Of a stretch of 63,823 bases of DNA, positions 18,841 through 61,999 are shown in pieces. Each line of letters begins with the position of its first letter. Position 1 is the stretch's first letter. The translations under genes and the position numbers were made by a program. Origin of the DNA: a virus. Location: the IMG/VR virus record IMGVR_UViG_3300042376_000206. One strand, 5' to 3'. The notes under the pieces were generated by a model. That model searched no databases and had not been told where the DNA came from. It was given only the letters and a program-made list of their open reading frames with translations.

Positions 18841-19111
18841 AGACGACAAGGCGTACTACGCCAGAATGGATGCGCAGATAGCGGCGATGCCGGACGATCA
18901 GCAGAAGGCGCTGATCAAGGCCATCAAGCTGATCCTGCGCACGTTCGTCGAAGAGGACACGCAAGGTGTCCTGGTGGTGGCCAGTGCCGATGGGTATCTG
19001 ACCACGATGGGGCTGAACGCCAGCTTTATTGAGTCTGCGTCCATCGTCCGCGCATCAGCGGAAGTGTTTGCGGACACATTCAAGAGCAACAACGAGGAGA
19101 CTAAACATTGA
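18833..19111 (+). CDS. hypothetical protein (92 aa)
   Basis: ATG at 18833 after GGAGAG. Frame of ORF 18818..19111. Confidence 0.7.
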   Translation: MSEDDKAYYARMDAQIAAMPDDQQKALIKAIKLILRTFVEEDTQGVLVVASADGYLTTMGLNASFIESASIVRASAEVFADTFKSNNEETKH

Positions 19112-28654: not shown

Positions 28655-28916
28655 GCGAGGGCAGGGGTTCTTCATCCCTGCCCTTGATCTCGAAGCCATG
28701 CGTGAAGCAGGGTTGCGTGCGGCTGTGCCTTTGAAGCTGAAGGATGCACGGGCGCTGCCGTGCATCCACCAGGGGTTTATCGGGCTTCTATTCTTCCGAG
28801 CGTGTCCCGCACAGAAGAAGCGACCAGTATCTTCGCCTGACGCAGATCATCCAGAAGATCACGCTTCTCCTGAGATGTCAGAGTACTACCGCGAACCTGA
28901 CGCTCCGCCTTCGTGA
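28623..28916 (+). CDS. questionable small ORF overlapping the convergent giant gene
   Basis: GTG start with no clear RBS. PWEKIERGQGFFIPA... resembles a small phage protein pattern I recall only vaguely. The last 140 nt are antisense to 28777..38721, and a 9-bp hairpin lies inside it. Confidence 0.3.
   Translation: MPKYFPWEKIERGQGFFIPALDLEAMREAGLRAAVPLKLKDARALPCIHQGFIGLLFFRACPAQKKRPVSSPDADHPEDHASPEMSEYYREPDAPPS
28658..28684 (+). terminator. hairpin at the convergent junction (candidate early-arm terminator)
   Basis: AGGGCAGGG-gttcttcat-CCCTGCCCT followed by tgatct. Lies 4 nt after the primase-helicase stop. Confidence 0.4.
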
Positions 28917-31900
28917 TCTCGCCGATCTGTTGCCGGAAGGTGCCAGACAGCGACGCCAATTGAATCTTCTCCAGGTTGTCGCGCAAGTAAGCGTCGGCCC
29001 TGGCCAGTTCGCCCTTCTCCACAAGCCCTTCGTAGGTTTCCTTGGCGGCGGTGTAGTCCTTGAGCCGCTCGAACGTGTCGTCGATGATGCCTGCTGCGTC
29101 CTTGGGCTGGAACAGCGTACCCACCAGCGGCATCTGAGACATGCGCTTCTCGGGCAGATCTGTCTCCGGCGTAGGCAGCACCACGTTGGGAACCTGCATG
29201 AGCGCCATGCCCAGGCTACCGGTGTAGCCGCTGACCAGCGTCTCGATCTTGATCGGGGAGATGTTGAACAGCCGTCCCAGGAGTTTGGCAGTCTCGGAAG
29301 TGTTCTCCCGATAGCGTGCCCAAGGCTCCTGCATCTGCTCAGCAGCAGACTCCAGATCGCGCCCTGTGAAGAAGGACTTGCCCAGGCCCACCTCGATCAA
29401 CGGCTTGAACGCAGCGGGGACGCCGTAGTTGCCGCCACCAGGAATCATGTTGCGGATGATGCCCTTGAGCGCATCAACCGCCTCATCAGCACCACGCTCA
29501 GCGTAGATGCCGTTGATGAGCGCCTCGGGCAGCGCCTTGAAGATGTAACCCAGTTCAAACGGGATGGGTACGCGCAACTTCTCATCGAAGCCAGGAATCG
29601 GTACAAACCAGTTGTTGTACTTCTCATCGGGCCGAGCGTTCTTGTACGTCTCGTCGTCCTGCATGGCCATCGCGTACATCATGGACATACCGGCAAGCAT
29701 CGTGCCACGAGCGATCAGCTTCTCCTTGATCTGCAGCCGCTCGTTCATCGGCATCTGGCCACGCAGTGAGCGATACAACACGTCGAGCGACTGAATTTGC
29801 GCATTCATGAACGGAATCAGCGTGGTCAGCAACTGCACGCTCGGGTCGATACCGCGCCGTGCAAAGTTCATCGACTCCAGCGCCATGAAGGTGGCTTCCA
29901 TTTCGGACAGCCCCTGGTTGATGTAGCTCTCGTACTGGGCGCGGCGGGTGGCGGCATCGGCCTCCATCGACATCGCTTCCAGTTTGGAGAACGCCTTGGC
30001 CCAGCCCGGACGACCTTCTTGCATCTCACGCAACAGACGCGCCTTGTCCTCAGAGGTTCCCGTGAAGACCTGCCCACCCGTGATGCCACGCCTGTCTACG
30101 CTACTGGCTCTGCCAATTTGCTGCAGAGCGCCGAGCACTGGGGGTGCGTTGGAGCCGCTGGCCATGTAGGAGGACAGCGAGTCACGGAACAACTGCCGAC
30201 CTGCGTAGACGGGCGATGCGGTGATCGCACGGCGCAGGAACCGGGCGGGGATGCCCATGAGTTCAATCGCTTGGGGGAACATAGTCGGGATACCGGCCAG
30301 ACCCTTGGTCAGCAGTTCAGACGGGATGCCGATGTGGTCGGTATCGACGATGGCAAACCAGTCCTCACCATCAATCTTGAACTCGACCGCCCCCTGGGGA
30401 GCGCCTCTCTTGCCTGCCTTCCTGATCTTGGCCAGTCCAACAGACGCCATCTCCCACATCGCGTTCTTCACGGCGATGTTGCGCATGGCCATGTCAATCA
30501 GCATCGACGTGTTCTGCACGCTGCTGTCGAGGAAGTTGAAGATCGGCTCTTCGCCACCCACCAGTTCTTGCAGGTGCGGGCTGTCCTTGAGGTTGCCGAT
30601 GCGAACAGGCGTCAGGCCACCAATCATCAGTTCGGCAACGCCGTTGCGCACGCGGTAGTACGGGATGTAGTCCTTCTCCTTGAGCAAGCGGTCGGCTTCT
30701 TCCTTGCTCATCGCGCTTGTCTGCACCATGAACCGCAGCAGGTTCTGGTTGTACTCGTTGTACATTTCGCGGACGTCAGCAAACGCTTCCTTGAGTGTGG
30801 GGTTGGCCTCAATCTCAGCAAACGCGCTCTTGATGTCGGCCTCGGTGGGCAGCGAATCAATGGTCTTCCGCAGGTGCGCTTCGCGCTGCTTGACGCGAAT
30901 CTTGTCGTCTGCCGACAGTTTGCCGCTGGCCAACTCCTGCTCAATCTCTTTCAGTTCCGCTTCAGCCGCCGCACGTCCAAAGTTCAGCTTGTCGTAGCCC
31001 TTGTTGTCGGCACGCAGCTTGGCCAGATACAGGGTAGACAGGCGGTTGGCAGCATCGGCGCTGCCTGCTGCCTTGACGACATCCTTTCGGCTCAGGCGCT
31101 CAACAATCTGCTTGATGCTCACACCAGGCACCGACTCGATGATCCACTCGGTGCCACCATCCCGGCGCTTCTTCTCCATCAACTGCGGCACGCCCTCGGA
31201 CAGCGACAGCGACGTGAAGTTCATCCGCATGCCGTACATCCGCAGGTAGTACATCATCTGCATACCCTTGACAGCGTCACCCACCATCCCAGACACCTTC
31301 TCCAGGGGGGCAAGCGCATCAAGGAAGCGGGTGCGGAACCCCAGGCCCAGCATGCTCTGCTTGAACTTGGCGTAGGTGCTGGGCGACTGCGAGATCATCT
31401 TGTCGGCAGTCAGACCCGCGCCTTCCATAGCCGCGTTGTACTTGGGCGCACGAGAGAAAAGGATTTCGTCTGCCTGCCCAACACGGTCTATGTTTGCGGC
31501 AACGATAGTCGGACCTTCTGCCTTGTCGCCAAAGTCCACGTAGTTGAACCGAGCATCCGTGTCGGTGACCTTGCCACTACGCGCCGCCCGGTCAAGATAC
31601 TTGTGTCCTGCAATCCCATGCTTAAAGAGCCACATGGATGCGTCTTTTGGAGTCAGCCCGTTATTCCTAAAGACGCTTTCAAGCTCCGAAATAAAATCTT
31701 GCTTTGTCTTGCCAGAATCAAACACCGCCTGAAGTTTGGTGGTAAACAAATAGTTTGGGCGCTTAGGGAGCCCAGCTTTTGCAGCCTCTGTCAGCAACCT
31801 TGCGTCATCCGCGTCAATGCGCGCTGTTCTCTTTGGTGTCGGCACATCGCCCAGCGCATTTGCCACCGCATTCTTGACATACTCATTCTGATCCTTCAAC

Positions 31901-34900
31901 GGAAGGTCGAGCATGTAGTACTCGCTCTCAGGGCGCACGCCCAAGACGCGCTTCATTACCCCTTTGGGGCGAGGGACGGGCGGCTCTGTAACATTGGCTC
32001 CGCCAAGCCTATTAACATCAATCTGGTTAAGTGCTTCAAGTTCGGCTGTGTATTCTTCAATCTGTTTTTTCCAAAAATCCCTATTCTTTTTATTGCCGCC
32101 CATAGCGCCGTACTTTTTGGCGTCAGCAATTTCTGTTTTGGCTTCTTCTTTACTCTTCTTCAACCTTTCAACAAAAAGTGCGCGGAGGTCTGCTCCCGGT
32201 TTAGCTCCGTAAATATCAAGCAGGACGCGCCCCACCGCTTTTTCATAGGGGTCTTTAGAACCATATAGCTCGGTGTCGGTCTTGCCGTCATAAGTGAGCT
32301 TGGTTGTAACGCCATCGAAAATAAAGTCTGCTACTTTATCTCTAAGCGCAGGTTTTGAAATAGCGCCTTTTATGCGCGCTGTCGGAGTGTTGTATAGGCT
32401 AAGTTTTGCAAGCACGTCTGCATCTGCCAAGTCCATATACGCGGCAAGATCACTTATCTCTTCCCCAGTAAGTGCGCTCAACCCCGCCTTATCAATCGCA
32501 TCCTTGGCTTTTTTGAAGCCTGCAGCGTCGTAGCCGTACTCAAAGAGCGTCCCCGCAGCATCAAAAGAATCAAGTTCGGTGGCCCCATCGTCGATGTACG
32601 GCTTGTACTCCATAAGATGGAACAGGTCGCTGGCTGTCAGTCCGTTGACTTTGTGCCGCTGAGACTCCCACCACGCTTTGATCTTTGGGCTGTTCCGCCA
32701 GTCATCTAGCTGCTTCTCAGCTTCTTGCTGTTGGTAATGCTGCGCAGTGCTGTACCGCTGAGCGCGATACGTACCAAACCCAAACACCTGAGCGCCTTCA
32801 CCGGTGCCCATGAAGGAGTGGTCGAATTCCTTGAAGACCTTGCCAGTGCCGTGCCATGTGCCGCGCAGTTCCAGATGCGCTGCGCCGTAGGCCATATTGA
32901 CCAGATCGCCTACCTTGAGGTTTCCAGGGTTTACGCCAAACACACGCAGTGCCTGCATAAACTTATCCGCAATGGCCTTCAGCCAAGCGCGAACAACGCC
33001 ACCTTCCTTGGCCTCTGCATCAGGGCGAATGCCTGCCTTGACGGCTTCTTCGACAGCGTAGGCAATGATCTCATCATCCATCTGCGCAGCAGATGTCTTG
33101 GCTGCTTTAGCGCGCGCAATCGCAGCGCGGCCAATCCGGCCTTCAATCGTGTACTCCGGGCGCGTAGTCCAAGACTTGACGGCGTTCGCCAGACCCCGAT
33201 ACTGGGACTCACTGAACAGGTTGCGGAAGCCAATGTGCGCACCGACCTCGTGCAGCAGGATGGCCAGACCGTCGCCCTTGCCGATGTTGTTGGCGATCAA
33301 GTAAGCCGTAGGCTCGCCGCGTTTAGGCCCGTACACAAAGCCAACCGCATCGTCGGGAATCTTGTCCTTGAACTCAGGGTGAGCGGCGATCAGTTCGGCA
33401 AGGTTGTTGTAAATCTTGACCTTATCCGCACGCAAGCCCTTGATGCCAAGCGCCTTCTCCAACTCTTCACCCAGCGTCGCAGCAGTCTGCGGGTTGTTGG
33501 GTTTGCCTTTGGCCTTAGAGAAACGAATATCTTCGTTACCGATACGCACGGAGTCGAGCACATCCTCAACACCCTCGTACATATCCGCAATACGTTCAGC
33601 GCCTTTCTTCTCAGCAGCCATTGCCTCGAACGCGCCTTGCAGACGCTTGGTGCGTTGCGTCGAAGTTTCTTGCTTCTTAAAGCGGCTCTCTAGCACCCTA
33701 CGCTCATAGGGCGTGAGTTGCTGCATAGCCAGAACTGTGACCTGCTCATCAGACTTGAAAAGGCCCTCGCTACGCAGACGCTTTTTAACGTCGATCTCAA
33801 GGTCGCGGAGTTTTTCCGTCAGCGGACCTAGCAGTTCTTTCTCAGACCCAACGCCTTTACCCTTGAACGTAGTCTTCTGAGCTTTGCGAGCCTTGCGTTT
33901 TTCAGTGCGGCTCAACTCAGGCGTGCCCAGTTGCTCTTCGAGCATGGCGGCTTCGCGCTTAAGCTCAGCAATCTCACTGTTCAGACGTTCCTTGGTGGCG
34001 TCTGTGCGGGCGCGGCCAATCGCTGCTTCCTTCTCGGCAACTTCGTTGCCAATCTCAAGGATGCGATCTTCCAGTTCTGTTTCGCGCTCTTCCGCAGCCG
34101 CCTTGCGGGCGTCTGCCAATTTCTGGACTTCGTCTGCACGCTCACGCGCTTCAGCCGCCTGCTCCCGTGCAAGCTCTTCTGCGCTACTGATAGGCGTGAC
34201 ACGGCCCGCTTGCCTGCGAATACCCGGCAAGCCCAGCCCCGACATTGCGCGGCCAGTGCTGATGGTGGCTTCTTGCACAGCCTTACGCTGAGCCACAAGC
34301 TCCTTAGCGGCATCCTTCCGCTCCGCGCCTTGCAGGCGCTTGAGCTTGTCTTCTAGCTTCGTCAAGCGATCACGCTCAAACGTGACCCACTCATCGGCTG
34401 CAGCCTGGAGTTCAGACGACAGCACGAACCCACGCATGCCGGTGGTTTCAGCAGGCTCAATGTTTTGGCTTGGCTTCTCAAGCGCGGTGGCCAGATCGGC
34501 TTGCAGCTTTAGCAGAGCGTTTGTCTCTTCTGTGCGGATGACATCAATCAGCCGTACTGCATCCATGTCGCCTGCCGCCACAGCCGCAGCACGCTCCTTG
34601 CTCACCGCCTGCAGGCTTTGCAGTACCGCCGTGATTTCCTTCTGGAAGCGTTCCGTAATCTCCGCCATCTGCGCTTTCTTCAGCGCAGCCTGGAATGTTT
34701 CGCGGTAAACCTCGCGCTGCTTTTCAATCGCTTCCTGAGTCTCACCAATCTTTTGGTTGCGCTTAGCCTTGTCCTGGGCATCCTTAGCGTCCCAAGCCTC
34801 TTTTACATCGGCAAGCAGCTTTTTGCCGCGCTCCACCGCAGCACGGGCCTTCTTGACAGGCGGTGAGTTTTCAAAGTTGCGGGCAGTCGCACGGGCAAAT

Positions 34901-37900
34901 GCCGTGGCCGGAAGTTCTTTTTCTTCAAACAGATCAGCCTGCTTGGTCGGAGCTTTGGCAGGCTCACGCTCTTCTTCATCAAAGCGTTGGCCTTGGGCCT
35001 CAAGCTCACGCCGCTCTGAGGCAGGCATTGGCTTGGTAATGACGGGCGCTTGCTCCTCACCAAAGTCAAACCCTTGCTGCGCCAGTTGCGCACGCTCGTC
35101 CTCGGTAAGCCGCCTAGCCGGTGCGCCTTCTTCTGCTTCCGACAGCCCCAATGCGTCATCTATCTCGCGCAAGAGCTTGGCATCTTCGCCGGTAGCAGCA
35201 CGCTGCTCAACTCCTACAGGCGCAACCGTGGGCCGAGGTCCGGCAAGACGCTTGTTCAAGTTCTCCAGTTGCGTCTCGTATGTAGCCAGAAGGGTTTGAG
35301 CCTTGCGCTTCTTGGCAGGCGTCAACTCTTTGCCGTTCTCATCTACACCGGATGCCACCAAACGCTGCTGCGCTTGATACTGGCGATTGATCTCGTCCCT
35401 GCGGAACGCCAGTGCGTCGTAGCCCTTTTGCGCCCGTGCGCCCTCTACACCGCCCGTGACGGCGGTGGTACGTCCTTGCAGCACCCGCGTGGCCAGCGTC
35501 TCGGCAGCATCGAGCAAACCTGCGGTAAACGGTGCAGGGCCAGCTTTACCTTCAGGCCCGACTGCGGTCAGCACATCGCGCCCACCACGACCGGCTTCAA
35601 TAGCTGCCTGCGCACGCTGCAGACCCTCCACAATCTCAGGGGCCAAATCAGGCCGCGTTTGCAGAGCGCGGGTAATTAGGTTGCCTACATACTCACGACG
35701 CCGACGCAGTTCACCACCCAATGTTTCGGCAGTCTCACCACGCGCTTCAGCCGTTTTTTGCGCTTCCGTAATCGCGTACTGTGGGCGCAGCAGCGACTCA
35801 GCACGACGACCTTCTTCAGGCACAGCACTCAGTCGGCTAGAAATCTGCCGGAGTTGCTCTTGCAGTACTGCAGTAGCGGCTTTTTGAGCGCCAAACTGGC
35901 GCTCTTCCAGGGGTCGAGTATCGACAAGACGCGCCTTGCCCTTATCCACCAACACCATCGAGTACGTGCCGTCCTTGTTGCGGCGACGTTCGTAGGCAGG
36001 GCGGCGGGGCTGATACTTTTCGTAAGCGCGGCGGAACTCATCCGCTGCCTGGATTTCAGCCTTGCGGCGCTCTTCACCGGTCAGTTCAACTGCGCCGGTC
36101 TTTTCCGTCAGAGCAAGCCGCTCTGACTCCGTCATGTCGCGCAAGGACTTGCCCGAAGCCGCCTCACGCTCAGTCAACTTCTTGGCCAGCGCCGCCTGTA
36201 CGGTCTGCTTCTTGTAGTCTTCCAGAGCGGCGTTCAGCCACTGCTGGTCAGTGAGCGACGGCATGCGCTCATAGGTCTTGATGAGGTCTTCGGCGCTACG
36301 GGGCTTGGCCGCAGAGCGCGTGACCCACTCATCAAAAACCTGCTGCATCTGAAGTGCAGCCTTGAGTGCGTCGTCCTGAGACAGCGCCTTGCCAAACATC
36401 CGCTGCGTAGCTGCAGCTTCCTTGATGGCAGCGTCGATGAATCGAGCGCGGGCCTTGTCAACCTGGACGCGAAGCGTCTCGGCGGTAGAAGAAGCTGCAC
36501 CTTGCTGTTCTTTGTCGCCCAGGGTAAGGCCGCTGCGCAGGTCATCAATCAGACCCGCTGCATCCATCAGGGCGCTGTCCTGCTCCTTGCGGAGCTTAGA
36601 AATCAGCGATGCGTTGCCGCCCTGCTGCTCAATCTGGTTGAGCACCTGCTGTGCGTTTTCACGCTCTTTGCTCTTGGCGGCTCCGACTTCACGGTTGCCT
36701 GCGGCAAACGCCTGCTCTGCTGCCTTGGCGGCAGCATCTCGTTGCGCAATGGCTTCGTCCAAACGCTGCAGAAATACAGTACCACGTCGATCCACCGTCG
36801 CCCCTTCGGGCACTTCCACAGTAGGCGTGCCTTTAAGCGCGGTGTTGACGAGGTTGGTCAGGTTAGTGTCAAACGTACTCTCTCTGCGCTCTGCATCAAG
36901 CGCCTCTTGATCCTGCTGCCACTGCTCCAAGAACAGTTGTTGCGGTTCTGTGCGTTGCGCTTTGAGTAGCTCGGTTTCGCCGGGGAAAGCCAATCTGCCC
37001 TGCAGTCTGGCTTGTGCACGCAAAAGCTCTTGCATGCGCTCAAGGATGAGGTTGCTTTGCGGGCGACTCATCCCAGGCAGTTGTGCCTTGGTTTCAATCA
37101 GCTTAGCTGCGGCGGCAGGGTCTTGAATCAGGTATTTGGGAATGTCTCGGCCAGTACCCATGCCAGCGTTAATGTTCTGCTGAGCAAGCTCCAGGCGCTC
37201 TTTAGCGTAGGCTTCCAGTTCCGCACGCTCTGCGTCTTCTGGGGCTGCAGGCTCCAGCCCCAGGATTTCCGCTTCAATATCCGCAGCTTCCGGCGCTGCT
37301 GCTTTAGCGGCAGGCTTCAACTGCACCATACGCGCCTTGATGCGCTTGGCTTCATCCGAGGTGCGATCAAGCTGCTTGAGACGCGCCTTGAGTCTGGTGT
37401 ATTCCGCTTCGTTTGCCGCCTTGGCTTCAGCATCAAACTGCTCAAGCATATAGTCTTCAGGCGTCATCCCTGCTACACGCTGCTGCTCGGCAAACTGCTT
37501 GAAGAACTTCTCGCCACCCGCCCGGTTGTAGTCCTTGACGATCTGCGAAAGCTCAGTCCTTTGGAAGTCCTTGTATTCTTTGCGAAGCTCCTTGGCCCTG
37601 GCCAATGAGGCAGGGTCATCCTTCTGCGCGTCAAGCGCCTTGATCTCGGCCTTGTAGGCGTTGTCTTTTTCCTTGGCGGCTTGGTAGTCCGCTTGCAGTT
37701 TCGTCAGGTACTCCGGCTGCTTGCGCTTCTCGGCTTCTTCGGCTTCGAGCTTGGCCTTTTCTTCAAGCGCAGCTCTGCGCTGATCTTGGGCAACTTCGTC
37801 TAGCTTTCTACGCGCAAGCCCCTGCTCACCACCACGCTCAACGAAGCGGCCCACAGGCGACAAGCCAGCGCCAAGCACGGCACCACCAATAAAGCTGTCG

Positions 37901-38721
37901 ATGTACTCCTCACGAGCGCCTGGGTCTGAAATCGAAAGACCTGCTTGCAGGCGCTCAAAGTACTGCTGACCAGCTTCGGTCAAGCCTTCAATACCGGCGG
38001 TGCGCGCGCCAGTCTTAGCGTAGTCAGCAAAAGTCTGCTTGAAACCTTGCTCGGCAATGCGCTTGGCTTCGGCCTCGGTGATGTCTTTACCAACCGACCT
38101 AAACAGGTTGCGCACCAGCGGCAGCGCCTTCAAACTGACAATATCAAGCGCAGCCTGGGGGACGGCAGCGGCTGCGGCAGCAGCACCGCTAGCCCGCTCA
38201 AGCGACACCTCCTCACCACGCTCCTTTTGGGCTTCCAGTTGGCGAGCAAGGTTGGTGCCAGTGAACTGCGCCAGAGATGCCAAACCAGCACCGGCAGTGC
38301 CGACGATAGGTGCAGCCGCACCAAGCGGAATAGCCGCAGCACCGGCGGCAACAGGTGCCAACATGTACGGCAGCGACCCGCCAAGGAGTTCGCCAAACTT
38401 GGTGAGCGGTGCCTCAGTCCAACCTTTTTCGGTGGGACGGAAAATGCCCCGAGCAATATCTTCCTGCTCGGCCTGATACCGCTGGGCGTCCTTCTCGTTT
38501 ATGAAGCCGAGCTTGCCGCCAAGCAACGCGGCCTCACCCCTTATCGATTGAGCAGACGCCTTGAAGGCCGCGCCAAAACCAGACTCAGGCTCGCGCTCAG
38601 GCTCACGTCGAACAAAGGCTTCAGGGTATTCCCTACGCGCACGCGCAAATGCCTGCTGCGGGGTTTCGCCCTCCCGCACTGTGACGTAACTGCCGTTTGG
38701 GAGGGGTACGTACTGAGCCAT
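28777..38721 (-). CDS. giant (3314 aa) virion/ejection-type polyvalent protein
   Basis: A single uninterrupted ORF and last gene of the late arm, after three ejection-type genes. The N-terminus has Gly/Ala-rich hydrophobic segments. There is about 1400 aa of Ala/Glu/Lys/Arg/Gln coiled-coil-like sequence. The globular second half carries LLHEVGAHIG and WHGTGKVFKEFDH..GTGEGAQVFGFGTY. A hydrophobic C-terminal region includes LIARGTMLAGMSMMYAMAM. Confidence 0.85.
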   Translation of the reverse strand: MAQYVPLPNGSYVTVREGETPQQAFARARREYPEAFVRREPEREPESGFGAAFKASAQSIRGEAALLGGKLGFINEKDAQRYQAEQEDIARGIFRPTEKGWTEAPLTKFGELLGGSLPYMLAPVAAGAAAIPLGAAAPIVGTAGAGLASLAQFTGTNLARQLEAQKERGEEVSLERASGAAAAAAAVPQAALDIVSLKALPLVRNLFRSVGKDITEAEAKRIAEQGFKQTFADYAKTGARTAGIEGLTEAGQQYFERLQAGLSISDPGAREEYIDSFIGGAVLGAGLSPVGRFVERGGEQGLARRKLDEVAQDQRRAALEEKAKLEAEEAEKRKQPEYLTKLQADYQAAKEKDNAYKAEIKALDAQKDDPASLARAKELRKEYKDFQRTELSQIVKDYNRAGGEKFFKQFAEQQRVAGMTPEDYMLEQFDAEAKAANEAEYTRLKARLKQLDRTSDEAKRIKARMVQLKPAAKAAAPEAADIEAEILGLEPAAPEDAERAELEAYAKERLELAQQNINAGMGTGRDIPKYLIQDPAAAAKLIETKAQLPGMSRPQSNLILERMQELLRAQARLQGRLAFPGETELLKAQRTEPQQLFLEQWQQDQEALDAERRESTFDTNLTNLVNTALKGTPTVEVPEGATVDRRGTVFLQRLDEAIAQRDAAAKAAEQAFAAGNREVGAAKSKERENAQQVLNQIEQQGGNASLISKLRKEQDSALMDAAGLIDDLRSGLTLGDKEQQGAASSTAETLRVQVDKARARFIDAAIKEAAATQRMFGKALSQDDALKAALQMQQVFDEWVTRSAAKPRSAEDLIKTYERMPSLTDQQWLNAALEDYKKQTVQAALAKKLTEREAASGKSLRDMTESERLALTEKTGAVELTGEERRKAEIQAADEFRRAYEKYQPRRPAYERRRNKDGTYSMVLVDKGKARLVDTRPLEERQFGAQKAATAVLQEQLRQISSRLSAVPEEGRRAESLLRPQYAITEAQKTAEARGETAETLGGELRRRREYVGNLITRALQTRPDLAPEIVEGLQRAQAAIEAGRGGRDVLTAVGPEGKAGPAPFTAGLLDAAETLATRVLQGRTTAVTGGVEGARAQKGYDALAFRRDEINRQYQAQQRLVASGVDENGKELTPAKKRKAQTLLATYETQLENLNKRLAGPRPTVAPVGVEQRAATGEDAKLLREIDDALGLSEAEEGAPARRLTEDERAQLAQQGFDFGEEQAPVITKPMPASERRELEAQGQRFDEEEREPAKAPTKQADLFEEKELPATAFARATARNFENSPPVKKARAAVERGKKLLADVKEAWDAKDAQDKAKRNQKIGETQEAIEKQREVYRETFQAALKKAQMAEITERFQKEITAVLQSLQAVSKERAAAVAAGDMDAVRLIDVIRTEETNALLKLQADLATALEKPSQNIEPAETTGMRGFVLSSELQAAADEWVTFERDRLTKLEDKLKRLQGAERKDAAKELVAQRKAVQEATISTGRAMSGLGLPGIRRQAGRVTPISSAEELAREQAAEARERADEVQKLADARKAAAEERETELEDRILEIGNEVAEKEAAIGRARTDATKERLNSEIAELKREAAMLEEQLGTPELSRTEKRKARKAQKTTFKGKGVGSEKELLGPLTEKLRDLEIDVKKRLRSEGLFKSDEQVTVLAMQQLTPYERRVLESRFKKQETSTQRTKRLQGAFEAMAAEKKGAERIADMYEGVEDVLDSVRIGNEDIRFSKAKGKPNNPQTAATLGEELEKALGIKGLRADKVKIYNNLAELIAAHPEFKDKIPDDAVGFVYGPKRGEPTAYLIANNIGKGDGLAILLHEVGAHIGFRNLFSESQYRGLANAVKSWTTRPEYTIEGRIGRAAIARAKAAKTSAAQMDDEIIAYAVEEAVKAGIRPDAEAKEGGVVRAWLKAIADKFMQALRVFGVNPGNLKVGDLVNMAYGAAHLELRGTWHGTGKVFKEFDHSFMGTGEGAQVFGFGTYRAQRYSTAQHYQQQEAEKQLDDWRNSPKIKAWWESQRHKVNGLTASDLFHLMEYKPYIDDGATELDSFDAAGTLFEYGYDAAGFKKAKDAIDKAGLSALTGEEISDLAAYMDLADADVLAKLSLYNTPTARIKGAISKPALRDKVADFIFDGVTTKLTYDGKTDTELYGSKDPYEKAVGRVLLDIYGAKPGADLRALFVERLKKSKEEAKTEIADAKKYGAMGGNKKNRDFWKKQIEEYTAELEALNQIDVNRLGGANVTEPPVPRPKGVMKRVLGVRPESEYYMLDLPLKDQNEYVKNAVANALGDVPTPKRTARIDADDARLLTEAAKAGLPKRPNYLFTTKLQAVFDSGKTKQDFISELESVFRNNGLTPKDASMWLFKHGIAGHKYLDRAARSGKVTDTDARFNYVDFGDKAEGPTIVAANIDRVGQADEILFSRAPKYNAAMEGAGLTADKMISQSPSTYAKFKQSMLGLGFRTRFLDALAPLEKVSGMVGDAVKGMQMMYYLRMYGMRMNFTSLSLSEGVPQLMEKKRRDGGTEWIIESVPGVSIKQIVERLSRKDVVKAAGSADAANRLSTLYLAKLRADNKGYDKLNFGRAAAEAELKEIEQELASGKLSADDKIRVKQREAHLRKTIDSLPTEADIKSAFAEIEANPTLKEAFADVREMYNEYNQNLLRFMVQTSAMSKEEADRLLKEKDYIPYYRVRNGVAELMIGGLTPVRIGNLKDSPHLQELVGGEEPIFNFLDSSVQNTSMLIDMAMRNIAVKNAMWEMASVGLAKIRKAGKRGAPQGAVEFKIDGEDWFAIVDTDHIGIPSELLTKGLAGIPTMFPQAIELMGIPARFLRRAITASPVYAGRQLFRDSLSSYMASGSNAPPVLGALQQIGRASSVDRRGITGGQVFTGTSEDKARLLREMQEGRPGWAKAFSKLEAMSMEADAATRRAQYESYINQGLSEMEATFMALESMNFARRGIDPSVQLLTTLIPFMNAQIQSLDVLYRSLRGQMPMNERLQIKEKLIARGTMLAGMSMMYAMAMQDDETYKNARPDEKYNNWFVPIPGFDEKLRVPIPFELGYIFKALPEALINGIYAERGADEAVDALKGIIRNMIPGGGNYGVPAAFKPLIEVGLGKSFFTGRDLESAAEQMQEPWARYRENTSETAKLLGRLFNISPIKIETLVSGYTGSLGMALMQVPNVVLPTPETDLPEKRMSQMPLVGTLFQPKDAAGIIDDTFERLKDYTAAKETYEGLVEKGELARADAYLRDNLEKIQLASLSGTFRQQIGEITKAERQVRGSTLTSQEKRDLLDDLRQAKILVASSVRDTLGRIEAR

Positions 38722-38733
38722 GTTCTGCAGCGA

Positions 38734-40737
38734 TTAGGGGAGGACAGGTGCGCCAGCGGGTGGCGCCGAAACGGGTCGAACGCCTATACCTTGAATGTAG
38801 GCATTAACCGCATCATAAGCGTCCTTGTTAGATTTCTTCAACATTTCCAATGCACCTGGAGTTGAAAGTAGTTTGCCTGCAAGCGTGGCCATTGCCTGCT
38901 CACTGGTCTTGGCCTGCTGTACAAAAGTAAAGCCTTCTTTGACGTCACCGTTGCCCAACGCTGCGTACAGTTTTTGTTCAGGTCCAGGCAACGTAGCAAG
39001 TTCCCGACGGAGATCGGCGTCGGCTTTGGCAAGCGCCTCTCTGCTACCAATATCAATTTTCTGCATGTACTCGCGGTGGGCAAAATCAAGTCTCTGCCGT
39101 TTATCTGCCGCTTCGATTTCGCGCTCTTTAGCGAAGAACCCTGCGGCAAGTTGACCTCTCTTAAGCCCCAGGTCTTGTTCGGCGCTAAGGAAGTAACGCT
39201 CACTGGCTGTCTGCTGCTCGTCGGCCCGCTCCATACGGTCCAAGGCTTCTTTGGTGTCGCCTTTGGCTTCCAAGCGCCGAGCTTCTTGGATGTTGGCCAG
39301 TTGCAGATCACGCTGCTTACCGGCTTCTTTGAGTTTAGAAACCGCCGCTTGGTACTCCTTGGCACCGATGTTAAAGCCCTTGGCGATATTGACCAGGGCG
39401 TTGGGCGACTCTCCAGAAGCCACAGCCAATCCGGCGCTGATAAGCCCCCAGGCGCCAGCTTGACTCATTTCTCTTTCTGCACCTTCGGCCTGCTTTTTCA
39501 GCAACGCCTCAAGCCCAGCCTGTGCTGGCTCAGTGGGCGTGGCTTCTTCGCGCCGTGCCTGAGCAGTCAGCCTGCGGGCGTCTTCCCGTATGCGCTGTTT
39601 CCTAAGTGCCTCCTCATATGCGCCTGTGGGCAGGAAAGTCCCCGCCACATCCATTGCGCCTTGCGGCGTCAACGCAGACATAAACTCACGCGCAGTAGGC
39701 GCTGTTCCGGGAGCACTCGTAGCCGCTCCAGCAGCCGTGCCAGGAGCCGTTGGACGTTGTGCGGCAACACCAGGGGCGGCACCAGGGGCGGCACCAGGGG
39801 CGGCACCACCAACAGGCGCACCTCTTTGCGCTGCAGCAACCTGACCGGCTTGAACTTGAGGCATGCGAGCGCCCCGTTGCTCAGCTTCCGGGCCGTACGC
39901 AGCCTCAATATCCTCGTAAGGCACGGGCATAGAGGCCAAAGAAGCCGCCGTCAACGCCGTTTTTTCAGGCGTCGGTTGTTTTTGCGGGGCGGGTGGTTTA
40001 GCCCGAGCACGTGCTTCTGCGTCTAGCTTTTCGTAAAGCGCGGGGGCTTTCTCACGGATCACGTCCTTGATACCAAGAAGACCATACTGCTTAAGCGCCT
40101 TGAGTTGCGACTCCGTCAATGACGGAAGCAGTCGATCAATAACCGCAGCAGTCTCTACGTCCGTGTCGGTTTGCTCCATGAACAAGCCTGGAATACCTGC
40201 ACGAGAACCGTATGTAGTAGACAGGTCGCTACGCAGTCGAGCCTCACTAGGCCCAAAAAAGCTCTGGTATAGCCGACCCATGCTGCGACCAAAAGGCGTA
40301 GTGCCTCCCTCATCAAACCGCTGCACCGCACCGCCCTCGGCCATGCGCACGACAGGCTCGCTGCGTTGGGTAAAGTCAAACATGCCGCCGCGAGAGAACG
40401 CGTCTTCAGCGGTGTCCGAGACGCCGCCTTCGGCGTAACCTGCGATACCACCATCAGCCATGCGCTCCATGTTGGGTGCTTGCAGTCCGGCAATACCGGG
40501 CGCTGGCTGGGGCTGCTGACCCATCGCCATGAGGGCTTGATCTGCCACCTTGGGTTGAGGCTGGGCCATTTGCGCCTGAGCGGCTTGACGCATCTTCTTT
40601 CGCGCCATGTCCTCAGCAATCACCATCGGGAAGATGTACGGGTCTTGCTTGTACATCTGCGCTACGCGCTGCAATGCCTGATCCGGCATCATGCGCAGTT
40701 GCTCAGTGAACTGATTGACGTTCGGAATCATGCTCAA
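38734..40737 (-). CDS. internal virion/ejection protein candidate (667 aa)
   Basis: ORF track. Gln/Ala/Pro-rich with an (APGA)n tract and a coiled-coil C-terminal half. Position is equivalent to podovirus core proteins. Confidence 0.7.
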   Translation of the reverse strand: MSMIPNVNQFTEQLRMMPDQALQRVAQMYKQDPYIFPMVIAEDMARKKMRQAAQAQMAQPQPKVADQALMAMGQQPQPAPGIAGLQAPNMERMADGGIAGYAEGGVSDTAEDAFSRGGMFDFTQRSEPVVRMAEGGAVQRFDEGGTTPFGRSMGRLYQSFFGPSEARLRSDLSTTYGSRAGIPGLFMEQTDTDVETAAVIDRLLPSLTESQLKALKQYGLLGIKDVIREKAPALYEKLDAEARARAKPPAPQKQPTPEKTALTAASLASMPVPYEDIEAAYGPEAEQRGARMPQVQAGQVAAAQRGAPVGGAAPGAAPGAAPGVAAQRPTAPGTAAGAATSAPGTAPTAREFMSALTPQGAMDVAGTFLPTGAYEEALRKQRIREDARRLTAQARREEATPTEPAQAGLEALLKKQAEGAEREMSQAGAWGLISAGLAVASGESPNALVNIAKGFNIGAKEYQAAVSKLKEAGKQRDLQLANIQEARRLEAKGDTKEALDRMERADEQQTASERYFLSAEQDLGLKRGQLAAGFFAKEREIEAADKRQRLDFAHREYMQKIDIGSREALAKADADLRRELATLPGPEQKLYAALGNGDVKEGFTFVQQAKTSEQAMATLAGKLLSTPGALEMLKKSNKDAYDAVNAYIQGIGVRPVSAPPAGAPVLP
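39769..39804. repeat. 12-bp x3 perfect tandem repeat (accaggggcggc)
   Basis: Read directly. Encodes the AAPGAAPGAAPG part of the 667-aa protein. Confidence 0.9.
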
Positions 40738-41972
40738 CGCCCCATGTTGTAGATTGCCAGATCAGCCAGACCTGCGGGTTTCTCTCGGTACTCGGCGTCC
40801 TCGACTTCGCCGCCACCCTTCATACCAAACAGCTTGCTTGCGCCCAGAGCGGCGGTGCCCAAACCAGCAACTTGAGATATGGCAGAAGGCGGCTGCTGAT
40901 ACAGCGCCGAGCCAGTCTGCGTCAGTGGCACGCCACGGATGATGTCGGACATGAAGCCCAACTGCTTGTACGGGTAGTTCTGGTAGTTGAGGAAGTCTTG
41001 GTACTGAGCGCCCAAGATGTCCTGCATGCGCTGCTGTTGCTGCTGACCGTACTGAGCCTGCAACTGGTTGAGCGCAAGGTTCTGGCCAAACTGCGTCTGA
41101 CCCAGACTGCCAAGTTGTTGCGCTGACTGAAGCGCCGCTTGCAGACCCTGCAACCCCAGACCGGCGCCATACTGACGTGACTGCTCGCCAAGCTGCGCAG
41201 CGGCTTGACCGTACTGAGCGCCGAGCCCTGCTTGCTGCATCAGGTTGCCGTAGCCAAACTGACGAGACTGTTCAGCGGCTTGCTGCGCCTGCATCCGAGC
41301 CTGTTGGTTGGCCATCTGCGCCTGGAGCCGAGCGCCTTGCTCGGCGTTGAACTGCTGCTGTGCTTGCTGATACGCGGCCTGCAATCCTTGGGCTTGGATG
41401 CCCCCCATCTGCGTGGCAAGGTTGCGTTGCGCTTCGGCGTTCTCGATGGCTTGACGCGCACCACCAAACGCACCGGCACGGGCGTACTTCTGACCCCGAG
41501 CAGTAGCGGCGATGTCCGCTTGGCGCTGTGCTTCGCGCTGCTGAACGTCCACCACGCTCTGCATGTACGGAGACATAAAACTTTGAGCCGCGTTGGGATC
41601 GGCAAACGTCTGCGTGCCAACGCCAGAAGCCGTGAACGCTGTGGGCGTGTATGCGCCCAGCCCCTGGTAGAAGTTGCCAAACTGGGAAGGCTGATACTGG
41701 TTGTAAGCCAACGCCCGAAGACCTGCGGTGCCTGCCAGGGCCGAAGCATCGGCCAACTGAGGAGCCGCCTCCATCGCCTGGGCACCGGCAAACGCCTGCT
41801 GCTGCAGCGGGGTGAACTGAGCAAACCGCTCACCCATGTACTGCTGGTACGGGTTGTACTCAACGTCGGTTAGCGCCTCGGCTTTACCGAGCAGCGCCTC
41901 TGCATAAGGTGCGACGACAGGAGCAAAGCCTGTCTGGTACTGCTGTACTTGGTACGGGGTGGGATCAGCCAT
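40734..41972 (-). CDS. internal virion/ejection protein candidate, Gln-rich (412 aa)
   Basis: ORF track. Very Gln/Ala/Gly-rich. 4-nt overlap with the downstream gene. Confidence 0.7.
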   Translation of the reverse strand: MADPTPYQVQQYQTGFAPVVAPYAEALLGKAEALTDVEYNPYQQYMGERFAQFTPLQQQAFAGAQAMEAAPQLADASALAGTAGLRALAYNQYQPSQFGNFYQGLGAYTPTAFTASGVGTQTFADPNAAQSFMSPYMQSVVDVQQREAQRQADIAATARGQKYARAGAFGGARQAIENAEAQRNLATQMGGIQAQGLQAAYQQAQQQFNAEQGARLQAQMANQQARMQAQQAAEQSRQFGYGNLMQQAGLGAQYGQAAAQLGEQSRQYGAGLGLQGLQAALQSAQQLGSLGQTQFGQNLALNQLQAQYGQQQQQRMQDILGAQYQDFLNYQNYPYKQLGFMSDIIRGVPLTQTGSALYQQPPSAISQVAGLGTAALGASKLFGMKGGGEVEDAEYREKPAGLADLAIYNMGR

Positions 41973-41981
41973 GATGCTTCC

Positions 41982-44477
41982 TTATGCGGGCAAGTATTGC
42001 TCGGCCTTGGTGTTCTTGGCCACCTTGCCTTTGCCGGTTGTCTTGGCGCGTGCACGCTGCACACGATCCATCATTGCGTAGAGTTTGCGAGCGCCTGCTT
42101 CGGTCGAGCCGTTGCCAATTTCAGAGACGATCCGGGCGGGCACCACGAACTCACCATCGGCGAGGCGCGCGGGTTGCCGGTTACCAATCGTTGCCGGGAT
42201 GCTGTCAGAGACGCCGTCTCCCGGGCCGCGCAACAGGCGCCCACCATCGGAGTAGCCGCCCAGGTTGTACTGCTGGACGTTGCCACCACGAGCAGCGGCA
42301 GACGCGATGTCCATCAAACCGCCTGCTTTGCCGCCAGGAACATCCGTGTTACCGGTTCTGCCACCGCCGGTGGTTTCTGTCCAACCCTTGCGGCCTTCTT
42401 TCTGGCCAAAAGTCTCCCAGTGGTATCGGGCGTAGGCGTCGGCTGTCATGCCAGTAGCGCCCTTGAGCCATTCTTGGTACACGTCGGGGTTGGCCTTGAA
42501 GTACGACTCGGTGTTGCCAACAACAGGGTTGCCTGCCTGATCGCGGATGGGTGCGTTGGCCGTAGAGGGCGTGCGCTCAACGAACTGGGGGTTTCTCACA
42601 TACCGCTGCGTTGCAGGATCAAAAATCAAACGCTTAGCCTTGATGTTCTCAGGCGCACCGAGGACGGCCTCGGCGTACGGACGCATCAACTCACCAGTGG
42701 GCGTGAACGGCTTGACCGGGTACGCGCCACGGCCCATCAAATAATCGTAGGCTTGGCTGCTGCCGCCCTTCAAATCGCTGAAGCGGAACTCGTTGTAGGC
42801 AGCGCGGGCCTGCATTTCCGGGATGCCCTTGCCGCGAGCGAAGGCAACAACGTCGCCGTACAGCGCGTTGGGATTCTGGGTCAAGTAGCCTTTCAGTTCA
42901 GCAAAGGCTTGGTTCTGCGTGTAGGTGCGGTCAGTCGGCTTGATGTCCGTGATGACCGGCATCTTGGTAGAGCCGCCGCCTTGCTCGTAGGCGCTCTTTA
43001 CCTCACTCATCGTGGGTGCCGTGGGCTGGAACGGCGTGCCGAGCGTAACCCTGGGATCACTGATGACCGGAGCGGCGGGCAAATCTGCCGGGGTATAGGT
43101 GGTGTCTGCACCTGAAGTTACAGGTGGAGGAGGCGTGGGTCTGTTCGGCGCAGACACGCCAATGTCGCGTTTGATCTGCCGAATCTGTGCCTCAATCTCA
43201 GGCATCGACAGACCGGCCTCATATCGACCCATCCAGTAATTCAGACCTTCTGTCTCGGCCTCGCGGTTCAAAACATTGCGGTAAATATCGTTGATTTGAC
43301 TACCAATTTCATCGGTAGGCTTAGCCGCAGCGTAGTTATAACCAGCCGGAGCCGTGCCCGAGATGGTGGCGGGCGCGTTTGGGTTGGCAGCAACGGCGCT
43401 GAAGTTGTAACCTTGCGTGCTCAGAGGCAGGGGGGTGGGTTGGGCCACAGCGCGAGCAGCGTCAATCTGTTGCGCCAACATGGGGTTGGCGGCGCGGGTT
43501 TGGTTGACCACATCGTTAAAAGAACCAAGCCCCTGTCCCATCCAGTACTTGATGGCCTCTTCGTCGGGGTTGGTGACAGCCAGCGGGTTGCTCTTGTAGG
43601 CTTGCAGCACTTGCTCACGGGTAGCCAGAGGCGGTGGTGTACCGCCATCGGCAAGGGCCACGATCCCGCTTGATCCCATCAATCCACCACCCGCCGCATA
43701 TACAGGCTCTTGCGGAATATACGTACCGCCGTAGGGATCAAACGTGTAGCCGCGATACATGCCACGGTTCTGGGCAATGCTGGGCAAACCAACATTTGGC
43801 GGCGCGAGCATCTGCTCCGCTGCCGGAGCCAGGGCGTACATGGCGGGGCGAGCCAAAGATGAAAACCCACCAATCGGGCCAGGGGCGCTCTTAAGCGCCT
43901 GGAAACTTCCCGCTGCCTGCTCCATAAACGGCTTGGCGGCAAAGTCTGAGTAGGCTGTCTTTGCGGCGTTTTGAACAAACTGATTGGCAGCTTCCCCAAC
44001 TATGGGTTCTGCCATACCTTGCGCCGCAGCAGCGTTTATTTCCGCCAACCTTGTGCCAGCAGTTTTTGCAGCATCCGCTGCAGCCGCAGAGGCCCCCGCG
44101 CTTTCAGCACCGGTAAAGGCCGCACCCAAGTTAGCGCCGCCGTAAGCGCCAAGACCGGCCATGATGCCTTCTTTGAGACTTCCTTTGGCAAGACCTGCTA
44201 CGGCACCAACGGTCAAACCAGCCTGCATGGCCGACATCAAGCCTAAACCTGCAGGGCCAAGCGCAAAGCCTGCCACCATTGGCAGTATCGACTTCAACAG
44301 CCCCTTGAGGCTAAAGGCTTCGGGCAGGCCCGTTTCCGGGTTGATGGTCAGTGAACCGCCGTGCTTCAGCGCCAGAGCATGCAGCCCCGCGACTTCTTCG
44401 GGGGCCATGTGCACCAGCATGGTGTCACCGTTGCGCCCCTTGGACGCCATGTGGTCGGCTAGTACAGCAAGGCTCAT
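41982..44477 (-). CDS. internal virion protein candidate with DUF4214-like repeats (831 aa)
   Basis: GGAGG RBS. N-terminal GDTMLVHMAPEEVAGL...LTINPETGLPEAF motif followed by a hydrophobic Gly/Ala segment. Later modules include IYRNVLNREAETEGLNYWMGRYEAG and YFKANPDV...YARYHWETFGQKEGR. Confidence 0.7.
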   Translation of the reverse strand: MSLAVLADHMASKGRNGDTMLVHMAPEEVAGLHALALKHGGSLTINPETGLPEAFSLKGLLKSILPMVAGFALGPAGLGLMSAMQAGLTVGAVAGLAKGSLKEGIMAGLGAYGGANLGAAFTGAESAGASAAAADAAKTAGTRLAEINAAAAQGMAEPIVGEAANQFVQNAAKTAYSDFAAKPFMEQAAGSFQALKSAPGPIGGFSSLARPAMYALAPAAEQMLAPPNVGLPSIAQNRGMYRGYTFDPYGGTYIPQEPVYAAGGGLMGSSGIVALADGGTPPPLATREQVLQAYKSNPLAVTNPDEEAIKYWMGQGLGSFNDVVNQTRAANPMLAQQIDAARAVAQPTPLPLSTQGYNFSAVAANPNAPATISGTAPAGYNYAAAKPTDEIGSQINDIYRNVLNREAETEGLNYWMGRYEAGLSMPEIEAQIRQIKRDIGVSAPNRPTPPPPVTSGADTTYTPADLPAAPVISDPRVTLGTPFQPTAPTMSEVKSAYEQGGGSTKMPVITDIKPTDRTYTQNQAFAELKGYLTQNPNALYGDVVAFARGKGIPEMQARAAYNEFRFSDLKGGSSQAYDYLMGRGAYPVKPFTPTGELMRPYAEAVLGAPENIKAKRLIFDPATQRYVRNPQFVERTPSTANAPIRDQAGNPVVGNTESYFKANPDVYQEWLKGATGMTADAYARYHWETFGQKEGRKGWTETTGGGRTGNTDVPGGKAGGLMDIASAAARGGNVQQYNLGGYSDGGRLLRGPGDGVSDSIPATIGNRQPARLADGEFVVPARIVSEIGNGSTEAGARKLYAMMDRVQRARAKTTGKGKVAKNTKAEQYLPA

Positions 44478-61267: not shown

Positions 61268-61999
61268 TTATACACCGGGGCCTGGGGCAGCGTCAACGTA
61301 TTTAAAGCACCAGCCCTTCAAAGGTCCCCGAGTTAAGGGTTTGCCTGATTTCAAAGCGCGGTTAACTGTGGGGGGTTTGAGGTCTAGGGCTTCCCGCAGC
61401 GCCTGAATACTGGGGTACTTTGTGACGCTGCCGGTAGCGTCACACACCTCCACTGCCTTGCTAACCTTGGCGCCGTGATCGGGCCGCTTCTTGCCGTACC
61501 AGAAGTTGCCTTCGCCAGACAACGTGGCGCTGATCTTGGCTCGAACTGCGGCGGGTTTTGGTTTACCAAGCATAGTGGCGCGACGCTTAGTTTTTTCCTC
61601 GGGGGACTGCACACGCGCTTTAGACGCTACGCCAATACGGTGTTTGGCATCGTCCGTGTGTTTATGCCCCCAAGTCGGACTTAACGGGCCCGACATCCCT
61701 AAGTGAGGTGCGGTTGCGTCTACGCCAATGTTGTAGCAGTAGTCTTTGCCCACGTGCTCCTTGAGCCACCTGTTTTCTGCCGCAAGAAGGTCGGCAGCTA
61801 GCGCAAGTTCTTCGACCACGACAAAGACAAACGCCTGCTCGCCGTACTTGACCCATGCCGCTTGCAGGTGGCGGTTGTTGTGCTTGCCGGTACGCAACTC
61901 GGAAAAGTGCCGCGTCTTTCGGCGCTTCAGGTCTACCGCGCTGCCGACGTAGAACTTGTTGTTGACGACGTTGATGATTTTGTAGATGCCTCTGGCCAT
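61268..61999 (-). CDS. GIY-YIG homing endonuclease (free-standing)
   Basis: MARGIYKIINVVNNKFYVGSAVDLKRRKTRHFSELRTGKHNNRHLQAAWVKYG...FVFVVVEE gives the GIY-(10)-YVG, R, H.N and E motifs. Basic NUMOD-like linker repeats and a C-terminal HTH-like ALDLKPPTVNRALKSGK. Confidence 0.9.
   Translation of the reverse strand: MARGIYKIINVVNNKFYVGSAVDLKRRKTRHFSELRTGKHNNRHLQAAWVKYGEQAFVFVVVEELALAADLLAAENRWLKEHVGKDYCYNIGVDATAPHLGMSGPLSPTWGHKHTDDAKHRIGVASKARVQSPEEKTKRRATMLGKPKPAAVRAKISATLSGEGNFWYGKKRPDHGAKVSKAVEVCDATGSVTKYPSIQALREALDLKPPTVNRALKSGKPLTRGPLKGWCFKYVDAAPGPGV

Follow-up and report, generated by a model that had tools for sequence, protein, structure and literature searches.

IMG/VR virus record IMGVR_UViG_3300042376_000206 is a stretch of 63,823 nucleotides of viral DNA (the window), with, on its minus strand, a single-ORF gene (ORF, open reading frame) for a protein of 3314 amino acids (aa). 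Here we report an analysis of this giant protein, which is probably a polyvalent protein carried in the phage particle and ejected into the host. We favour this reading because of virion and infection data on homologues, because of the position of the gene and because cysteine is virtually absent across the family. Judged by its domains, the protein belongs to the phage-type large polyvalent proteins of Iyer et al. 2017 (PMC5512222): it has the LPD38 domain above the curated threshold, it combines several unrelated domains in an architecture that varies among relatives, and it is encoded among late genes. More than 1,244 metagenomic proteins match it; the 120 best homologues, against which module occupancy was counted by BLAST, are 2,244-3,588 aa long. 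The gene and its five modules are as follows.

28777..38721, minus strand: giant gene, 3314 aa and stop, ATG start, 365.5 kDa, isoelectric point 6.6 (from the list of ORFs and the translation)
37522..38721, minus strand: N-terminal conserved module, aa 1-400 (conservation by BLAST at about aa 45-400), in about 113 of 120 homologues
33520..37521, minus strand: variable charged helical spacer, aa 401-1734, with no His and no Cys
32860..33519, minus strand: conserved mid module, candidate zincin-like metallopeptidase, aa 1735-1954, in 85 of 120 homologues
31477..32859, minus strand: cargo slot with a 461-aa ADP-ribosyltransferase (ART)-like cassette, aa 1955-2415, with sharp homology breakpoints at aa 1954 and 2416
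28780..31476, minus strand: C-terminal module, aa 2416-3314, in 120 of 120 homologues

The C-terminal module holds the firmest domain assignment:

29122..29655, minus strand: Pfam LPD38 (PF18857), aa 3023-3200, E=7.1e-31, 108.2 bits against a cut-off of 27

LPD38, the 'Large polyvalent protein associated domain 38', has a phage-type only distribution (Iyer et al. 2017, PMC5512222) and is the sole Pfam family above threshold in the giant protein; a Pfam search with the whole protein and five segments at E values up to 5 returned otherwise only sub-threshold noise. An earlier note on this DNA, made from the letters alone, had held that no domain could be assigned with confidence; LPD38 is now assigned firmly, and the ART-like and HExxxH parts tentatively. 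The C-terminal module is also the sole part with relatives among isolated phages by tblastn, at 22-28% identity, in Vibrio, Bacillus (Pascal-like), Thalassomonas, Escherichia (PTXU04, Pondi), Achromobacter, Aeromonas, Planktothrix and Synechococcus phages. No match was obtained by tblastn of the N-terminal 1907 aa against phage records, by a megablast search of 50,697 phage records with the whole gene, or by phmmer of the protein against the PDB. A hidden Markov model (HMM) of the C-terminal module scored 228 bits with the Pag-Yong1 giant, 195 bits with PTXU04_00025 and 25 bits with phi24B gp47. The AlphaFold2 (AF2) model of the module is mostly helical with small sheets, at a predicted local distance difference test score (pLDDT) of 65.7. 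A structure search of BFVD with this model gave 51 matches at E<=1e-3, many of them later fragments (second to fourth) of large phage proteins, with annotations as polyvalent proteins or with RelA/SpoT, lysozyme-like, methylase, ART or zeta-toxin domains. TolC/OprN-type channels, the best Foldseek matches of the C-terminal model (E 0.06-1, TM-score <=0.11), were not counted as evidence. Taken together, these comparisons indicate that the module is a common carrier module of phage polyvalent proteins. The description of this region as hydrophobic holds only mildly, the Kyte-Doolittle means over 19 residues being 1.0-1.2.

Proteins with this module have been studied in several phages. Proteomics found gp47 of the Stx phage phi24B to be abundant in virions, and it is absent from the cryo-EM map; its authors propose an ejection protein, and pose the question of how such a protein is arranged in the capsid (bioRxiv 10.64898/2026.04.10.717836). 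In Burkholderia phage JC1, gp69 was the second-best-scoring protein of CsCl-purified virions, with 51 unique peptides (PMC9144972). Knock-down of PTXU04_00025 impairs infection, and the protein is needed for efficient infection (bioRxiv 10.1101/2023.09.18.558157). The view of the earlier note that the giant is a polyvalent protein carried in phage particles thus agrees with its LPD38 domain and C-terminal module, which match virion-borne giants; packaging and ejection are drawn from this homology.

The likeness to each of these proteins is partial. PTXU04_00025 (2,197 aa, LPD38 only) shares the C-terminal module (tblastn E=1e-32, rank 13 in BFVD), an HExxxH module and the absence of Cys, and its gene lies near the end of its block beside oppositely oriented lysis and replication genes; it differs in being about 1,100 aa shorter, in its essentially empty slot, in an N-terminal region without significant similarity and in its enterobacterial host. 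The phi24B protein (vb_24B_48; 2,807 aa) likewise has LPD38, is encoded by the last gene of the late arm, and shows an HExxxH-module match followed by a cargo domain and the C-terminal module; overall similarity is very low (one BLAST segment), it has 2 Cys, and it carries LPD5, a canonical HExxH, LPD1 and MuF_C where the window protein has the featureless spacer and the ART-like cassette. JC1 gp69 and Bcep22 gp75 (about 4,500 aa, 'DarB-like'), compared by description, have LPD38 near the C-terminus and are single giant ORFs ending the morphogenesis module, but contain lytic transglycosylase, methylase and helicase (DarB-like) domains, which the window protein lacks. The Pag-Yong1 'large polyvalent protein' (2,772 aa as annotated) comes from one of the closest cultured relatives by portal (40% identity) and resembles the window protein in its C-terminal module, its Gly/Ala-rich hydrophobic N-terminal segments, its lack of Cys and its convergent gene; it has no significant HExxxH-module match, has other HExxH motifs, and related records label the region RelA/SpoT. 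The virion RNA polymerase gp50 of coliphage N4 (3,500 aa) is packaged and ejected and has an alpha-helical N-terminal injection region, a central catalytic part and a C-terminal zincin-like motif for encapsidation (Iyer et al. 2017, PMC5512222); it resembles the window protein as a giant multidomain protein, by description alone. An N4-like virion RNA polymerase was rejected as an identity for the window protein, which has no Pfam or PHROG RNA polymerase match and only phrog_18222 (unknown function), as was a DarB-like methylase/helicase giant, for which no such Pfam match appeared at E<=1.

The protein contains zero Cys and 0.4% His, with no His in the first approximately 1700 residues, and across the family of 120 homologues Cys makes up 0.003% of residues and His 0.2% of the spacer. 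The near-absence of Cys would suit unfolded travel through an oxidising compartment.

Upstream of the slot lies the mid module, absent from 34 of the 120 homologues, with the following motif:

33235..33252, minus strand: HEVGAH (HExxxH), aa 1824-1829, both H, the E and the G being unchanged across 28 aligned sequences

LHEVGxH is conserved at >=95% in 84 sequences, and a downstream E..AY.VEE (aa 1884-1892) is invariant, with E1884, E1891 and E1892 in a predicted helix, any of which might supply the third metal ligand of a zincin. In the AF2 model of the module, at pLDDT values mostly of 75-94, a helix is followed by three strands, the motif helix and more helices, which is an order of secondary structure described for zincins (Iyer et al. 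2017, PMC5512222). The mid-module HMM matched PTXU04_00025 at aa 1133-1230 (HEIIVH, with downstream E..A.A.E; domain E=4.9e-7) and phi24B gp47 at aa 1535-1597 (HEIIHH; domain E=3.5e-5), these E-values coming from a three-sequence search with modest bit scores. In both phages the module lies just upstream of the C-terminal module, and the slot between them is empty in PTXU04 and filled by MuF_C in phi24B. Because the two share this arrangement, the unit of HExxxH module, slot and C-terminal module predates the phage group of the window. The module itself had no Pfam, PDB (sequence) or Foldseek match; a Foldseek search of the PDB with the mid module and cassette as one two-domain AF2 model, probably of lower sensitivity, gave nothing at E<0.3. 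It shows neither the HExxH motif nor the zincin profile or fold match that mark MPTase-PolyVal. That it is a zinc metallopeptidase is a tentative prediction from the motif and its surroundings, with somewhat less than even odds of activity.

The slot between aa 1955 and 2415 is an exact site of exchange. In P0004, identity to the window protein is 81% up to aa 1954 and 97% from aa 2416, with an unrelated 404-aa LPD23 cassette in between; in P0049 the slot holds a canonical ART-PolyVal. Slot length ranges over 5-487 aa in 86 relatives: about 33 of the 86 have an empty slot (5-20 aa), and the others have about 148, about 300 or 400-487 aa. By BLAST links, contents of at least 100 aa sort into two groups, with 33 and 23 members. 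When the window is compared with P0004 (contig L007), synonymous divergence is 0.10-0.17 in the spacer and C-terminal module and approximately 1.3 in the N-terminal and mid modules, with a tenfold jump at the module borders. Because divergence differs tenfold between modules, the giant gene is a recombinational mosaic, in which the N-terminal module too is exchanged, independently of the cassette. Identity of the mid module tracks the cassette, at 71-88% with a window-type cassette and 51-53% with LPD23 or an empty slot. Where the earlier note saw one globular region with catalytic-looking motifs, the motifs exist, and they belong to two separate units, the HExxxH module (aa 1735-1954) and the swappable cassette (aa 1955-2415). 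Its suggestion of a carrier of enzymes gains direct sequence support from the change of slot content between near-identical relatives.

Two parts of the cassette are recognisable:

32719..32859, minus strand: ART-PolyVal-like strands 1-2, aa 1955-2001, TWHGT...GEGAQVFGFGTY
31519..31641, minus strand: conserved C-terminal motif of the cassette, aa 2361-2401, GIAGHKYLD...FNYVDF, also in many small ART-like proteins

The opening sequence aligns with the strand-1 His and strand-2 Tyr of the Pfam ART-PolyVal profile (positions 10-49). The homologous cassette of P0088 matches ART-PolyVal at E=5.9e-7, and the window cassette, when aligned by hhalign with the canonical ART cassettes that relatives carry, gave E=1e-4. 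FNYVDF is conserved across the sub-family and was left unaligned to canonical strand 5 by hhalign. ART-PolyVal (PF18760; Tox-ART-HYD2 clade) has about 140 aa, compared with 461 aa and large helical insertions in the window cassette; both open with the strand-1 His and strand-2 Tyr motifs, and in place of an identifiable strand-5 acidic residue the window cassette has the conserved NYVDF. A scan of 1.84 billion cluster representatives returned 716 cassette relatives at E<=1e-3, with proteins of approximately 250-350 aa at one extreme and giants matched in as many as 10 stretches at the other. Most of the small relatives examined match in two pieces, the opening motif and a closing GxxGxKYLD...NYV(V/D)F, and nine of ten match ART-PolyVal, four of them also DUF3990. 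We tentatively regard the cassette as a divergent ART-like domain enlarged by insertions; that it has ADP-ribosyltransferase activity is conceivable, if somewhat doubtful.

A separate observation concerns the start of the slot. In 16 of the 53 relatives with a slot of at least 100 aa (P0011-P0014, P0016, P0020, P0029, P0047, P0060, P0066, P0084, P0092, P0093, P0098, P0108 and P0113), the cassette opens with SRRQFLRGAGAALGAMKLPP, which resembles a twin-arginine (Tat) signal and stands right after the HExxxH module inside a protein of approximately 3000 aa. Its hydrophobic stretch is short for a genuine Tat signal. A cut at the slot start, should it occur, would leave the freed piece with a Tat-like N-terminus.

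The N-terminal module contains, as the earlier note had seen, hydrophobic segments rich in Gly and Ala, three in number:

38257..38397, minus strand: Gly/Ala-rich segment 1, aa 109-155, Kyte-Doolittle maximum mean over 19 residues 1.67
38110..38193, minus strand: Ala-rich segment 2, aa 177-204, maximum mean 1.42
37837..37905, minus strand: Gly-rich segment 3, aa 273-295, maximum mean 1.27, with FIGGAVLG conserved

Residues flanking segment 1 are conserved in 99 homologues. The module does not significantly match the N-terminal parts of PTXU04_00025, phi24B gp47 or HTVC027P gp85, and matches Pag-Yong1 weakly (E=0.002 in a search of that one sequence). The segments might insert into membranes, which we would put at somewhat less than an even chance.

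The spacer that follows is charged and rich in Ala, Glu, Lys, Arg and Gln, and its sequence is conserved solely in the nearest relatives. It had been described as some 1400 residues of uninterrupted coiled coil. The coiled-coil character has some support, as the family profile matches only coiled-coil proteins of the PDB in this region; the spacer is not an uninterrupted coiled coil, with 47 Pro and 77 Gly in aa 300-1700, a longest Pro-free stretch of 168 aa, and patchy heptads (by a crude score, 18% of residues lie above the 95th percentile of shuffles, against 4.5% expected). Spacer length is never short and far from constant, at 920-1716 aa with a median of 1366 in 84 relatives, and because of this variation a strict molecular ruler, one of the roles proposed earlier, is disfavoured. 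The role of an envelope-spanning conduit is compatible with the data.

The giant gene closes the minus-strand late arm, convergent with the replication arm, and it is co-oriented with and downstream of the genes for terminase, portal, capsid, adaptor and tailspike. The window has an exact direct repeat of 121 bp at both ends (1-121 and 63703-63823), which indicates that the genome is complete, with 63,702 unique bp, and is either a closed circle or terminally redundant; the late arm continues across the window ends. The genes that define the two arms are as follows; a SNF2 helicase also lies in the replication arm.

19108-21084, plus strand: DNA polymerase A, replication arm
25757-28654, plus strand: DUF927 primase/helicase, final gene of the replication arm, facing the giant gene
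2036-4498, minus strand: portal, late arm
4505-6043, minus strand: large terminase, late arm
38734..44477, minus strand: three late genes upstream of the giant gene (667, 412 and 831 aa), candidates for ejection proteins by position
50355-53660, minus strand: tailspike of 1101 aa with a Peptidase_S74 chaperone, late arm
57221-58171, minus strand: SU10-type adaptor, late arm
62137-63066, minus strand: major capsid protein of 309 aa, late arm

The giant gene is thus the last of the late arm, as the earlier note had it. The note placed it after three ejection-type proteins; their position stands, and their identity depends on one weak match of the 412-aa protein to phrog_4287 'DNA ejection protein' (E=3.8e-7). 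The 667- and 831-aa proteins gave no informative match, and no PDB relative was found for any of the three. Relative L002 keeps the order of the three genes and the giant, and comparable late-arm synteny of the giant gene is seen in L002, phi24B and Pag-Yong1. By portal, the nearest cultured relatives are the pelagiphages HTVC027P and HTVC023P, the roseophages CRP-901 and CRP-902, the Planktothrix phage Pag-Yong1 and Caulobacter phages (34-44% identity). The interval between the two convergent genes showed neither a consensus terminator nor a consensus promoter, and no Shine-Dalgarno sequence was evident before the giant-gene start.

On these data we propose the following course. The giant protein would be carried within the capsid and pass into the host together with the DNA, the Cys-free polypeptide moving out along the portal-tail channel in a largely unfolded state. 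A chassis with an essential job would be formed by the N-terminal module, the long spacer and the LPD38-bearing C-terminal module; the job may be particle incorporation, tail passage, or touching or bridging the envelope. The C-terminal module may incorporate the protein into the particle or be the part essential for infection, the N-terminal hydrophobic segments may engage host membranes, and the spacer may provide reach across the envelope. The mid module and cassette would be an optional payload between spacer and C-terminal module, in which the proposed HExxxH zinc metallopeptidase would cut the polypeptide and the ART-like cassette would modify a host target early in infection. This division of labour is suggested because relatives always retain the N-terminal, spacer and C-terminal parts but can do without the mid module and cassette. 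Iyer et al. 2017 (PMC5512222) proposed that metallopeptidases cut polyvalent proteins into working units, and the adjacency and co-inheritance of HExxxH module and cassette would fit that proposal. A more far-reaching version, which we consider unlikely, is that the chassis is an essential 'internal tail' for trans-envelope DNA delivery, unfolding through the portal and spanning the periplasm in a large and mostly uncultured group of short-tailed phages, that the HExxxH module is an undescribed self-cleaving peptidase family freeing the slot cassette, and that some freed pieces with a Tat-like signal are sent back across the membrane.

All other explanations presuppose that the giant gene is real. 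An artefact, in which several genes were fused by sequencing or assembly error or the frame is non-coding, deserves practically no credence. The single ORF is uninterrupted from its ATG and takes up 15.58% of the window, in agreement with the 15.6% first reported. Independent metagenome contigs contain the same continuous ORF at full length (P0002 and P0003, at 94% and 79% identity), and the ratio of non-synonymous to synonymous substitution rates (dN/dS) against the 94% relative is 0.09-0.38 across all regions, which is far below 1 and means purifying selection; it is 0.12-0.16 in the spacer and lowest in the cassette, at 0.09. The earlier note had named sequencing errors as a possible refutation, and with one frame kept in independent contigs and low dN/dS the ORF is not several genes. 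Relatives align from residue 1 onwards (consensus MAQY.PLP.G), which supports the ATG start. Nothing was found in favour of an artefact; the gene does contain long antisense ORFs, such as one of 823 aa (29797-32268, plus strand) in codon register with it. This ORF exists because TTA, CTA and TCA are nearly absent as sense codons of the giant gene (17 of 3315); it breaks at differing positions in relatives and was rejected as a real gene.

Granted a real protein, it could be an internal structural protein only, serving as capsid core, in DNA spooling or as a periplasm-spanning conduit, with the HExxxH and ART-like parts as inactive relics. We think this improbable, although PTXU04_00025 is essential despite its empty slot and lack of a recognisable effector domain, the slot is empty in about a third of relatives, the mid module is missing from 34 of 120, the long spacer is always retained, and the ART-like motif has Asn instead of an acidic residue; relics would hardly keep HExxxH and the downstream Glu invariant over 84 sequences or show the lowest dN/dS of the gene in the cassette, and the swapping of intact cassettes, including canonical ART-PolyVal and LPD23, is as expected of working payloads. 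It is very unlikely that the protein is expressed late and left unpackaged, acting in the infected cell as an envelope scaffold, in superinfection exclusion or in lysis: LPD38-module homologues occur in purified virions of two unrelated phages (phi24B and JC1), and the gene lies within the virion-morphogenesis arm in every relative examined. That view can draw on the fact that packaging of the window protein itself is argued from homology, and on the hydrophobic N-terminus and long helical region, which suit a membrane-anchored cytoplasmic or periplasmic filament. The great length, the helix-forming residues and the variable central region might also recall an external fibre or adhesin on the particle, which is less likely still, for signatures of fibres, collagen, beta-helices or receptor binding are absent from the protein, the phage encodes a distinct tailspike of 1101 aa at 50355-53660, phi24B gp47 is absent from external cryo-EM density, and it is the C-terminus and not an attachment N-terminus that is most conserved, the variable part not being distal.

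Several observations weigh against a packaged and ejected protein with an enzymatic payload. The virion data come from distant homologues only: C-terminal identity to PTXU04 and Pag-Yong1 is 23-28%, and the BLAST match of phi24B gp47 to the window protein covers 150 aa at E=1e-7. HTVC027P, with a related portal, has a dissimilar 1342-aa protein (gp85) at the position of the giant gene. Foldseek retrieved no PDB entry at E<=0.001 for either AF2 model, with the C-terminal model at only the pLDDT given above, and the hydrophobic N-terminal segments are moderate on the Kyte-Doolittle scale. As regards the HExxxH module, the motif spacing is non-canonical (HExxxH rather than HExxH), and a Pfam search with nine diverse modules returned no peptidase family and no consistent family, the single weak matches being DUF6782 (E=0.095) and Peptidase_M76 (E=0.18). 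The window cassette is sub-threshold for ART-PolyVal (E=0.11-0.93, 10.7-13.7 bits against 31.2), only its first approximately 40-47 residues align meaningfully to ART, and its conserved Asn, directly before the Tyr, occupies a site that is Glu in two canonical ART cassettes; a third canonical cassette has Asp one position earlier than this site.

Three neighbouring features of the late arm were noted in addition:

1418-1975, minus strand: 185-aa protein like the C-terminal part of a GroES-like co-chaperonin (phrog_3188, E=9e-8), between the portal and the scaffold/capsid genes
44525-45907, minus strand: 460-aa 'virion structural protein' (phrog_1645, E=3e-146)
61268-61999, minus strand: GIY-YIG-type homing-endonuclease-like ORF (phrog_314, E=1e-31), directly downstream of the capsid gene

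The annotation of HTVC027P has a co-chaperone GroES at the place equivalent to that of the 185-aa protein. The 460-aa protein has 60-67% identity to proteins of the T4-like cyanophages S-RIM8, S-WAM2 and S-RIM12 and of SAR116 phage HMO-2011, a likeness that far exceeds that of every other window gene to these phages, and relative L002 has a 215-aa gene in its place; the gene looks like a transfer between phage families into the late arm. The endonuclease seems to be free-standing, neither intron nor intein. A split capsid gene was rejected, as its ORF, at 309 aa compared with 302 aa in HTVC027P, seems to be complete.

What is new here is modest: a map of five modules, an exact cargo slot with recombinational exchange, an unannotated HExxxH module also carried by PTXU04 and phi24B, and a large sub-threshold ART-like family. 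Papers on HTVC023P-type and CRP-901-type phages contain no discussion of a giant protein. Giants bearing LPD38 take up 15-22% of the genome in several short-tailed phage groups, and the field still asks how they work. With more than 1,200 relatives, the family amounts to a natural experiment, in which the chassis is kept and the HExxxH module and cassette come and go by recombination, and the pattern of retention separates candidate parts for the core function from candidates for host manipulation, with exact borders at aa 1954/1955 and 2415/2416. Cultured members of the phage's group infect abundant marine bacteria (SAR11 and Roseobacter), and for this reason the payloads may matter for the onset of such infections.

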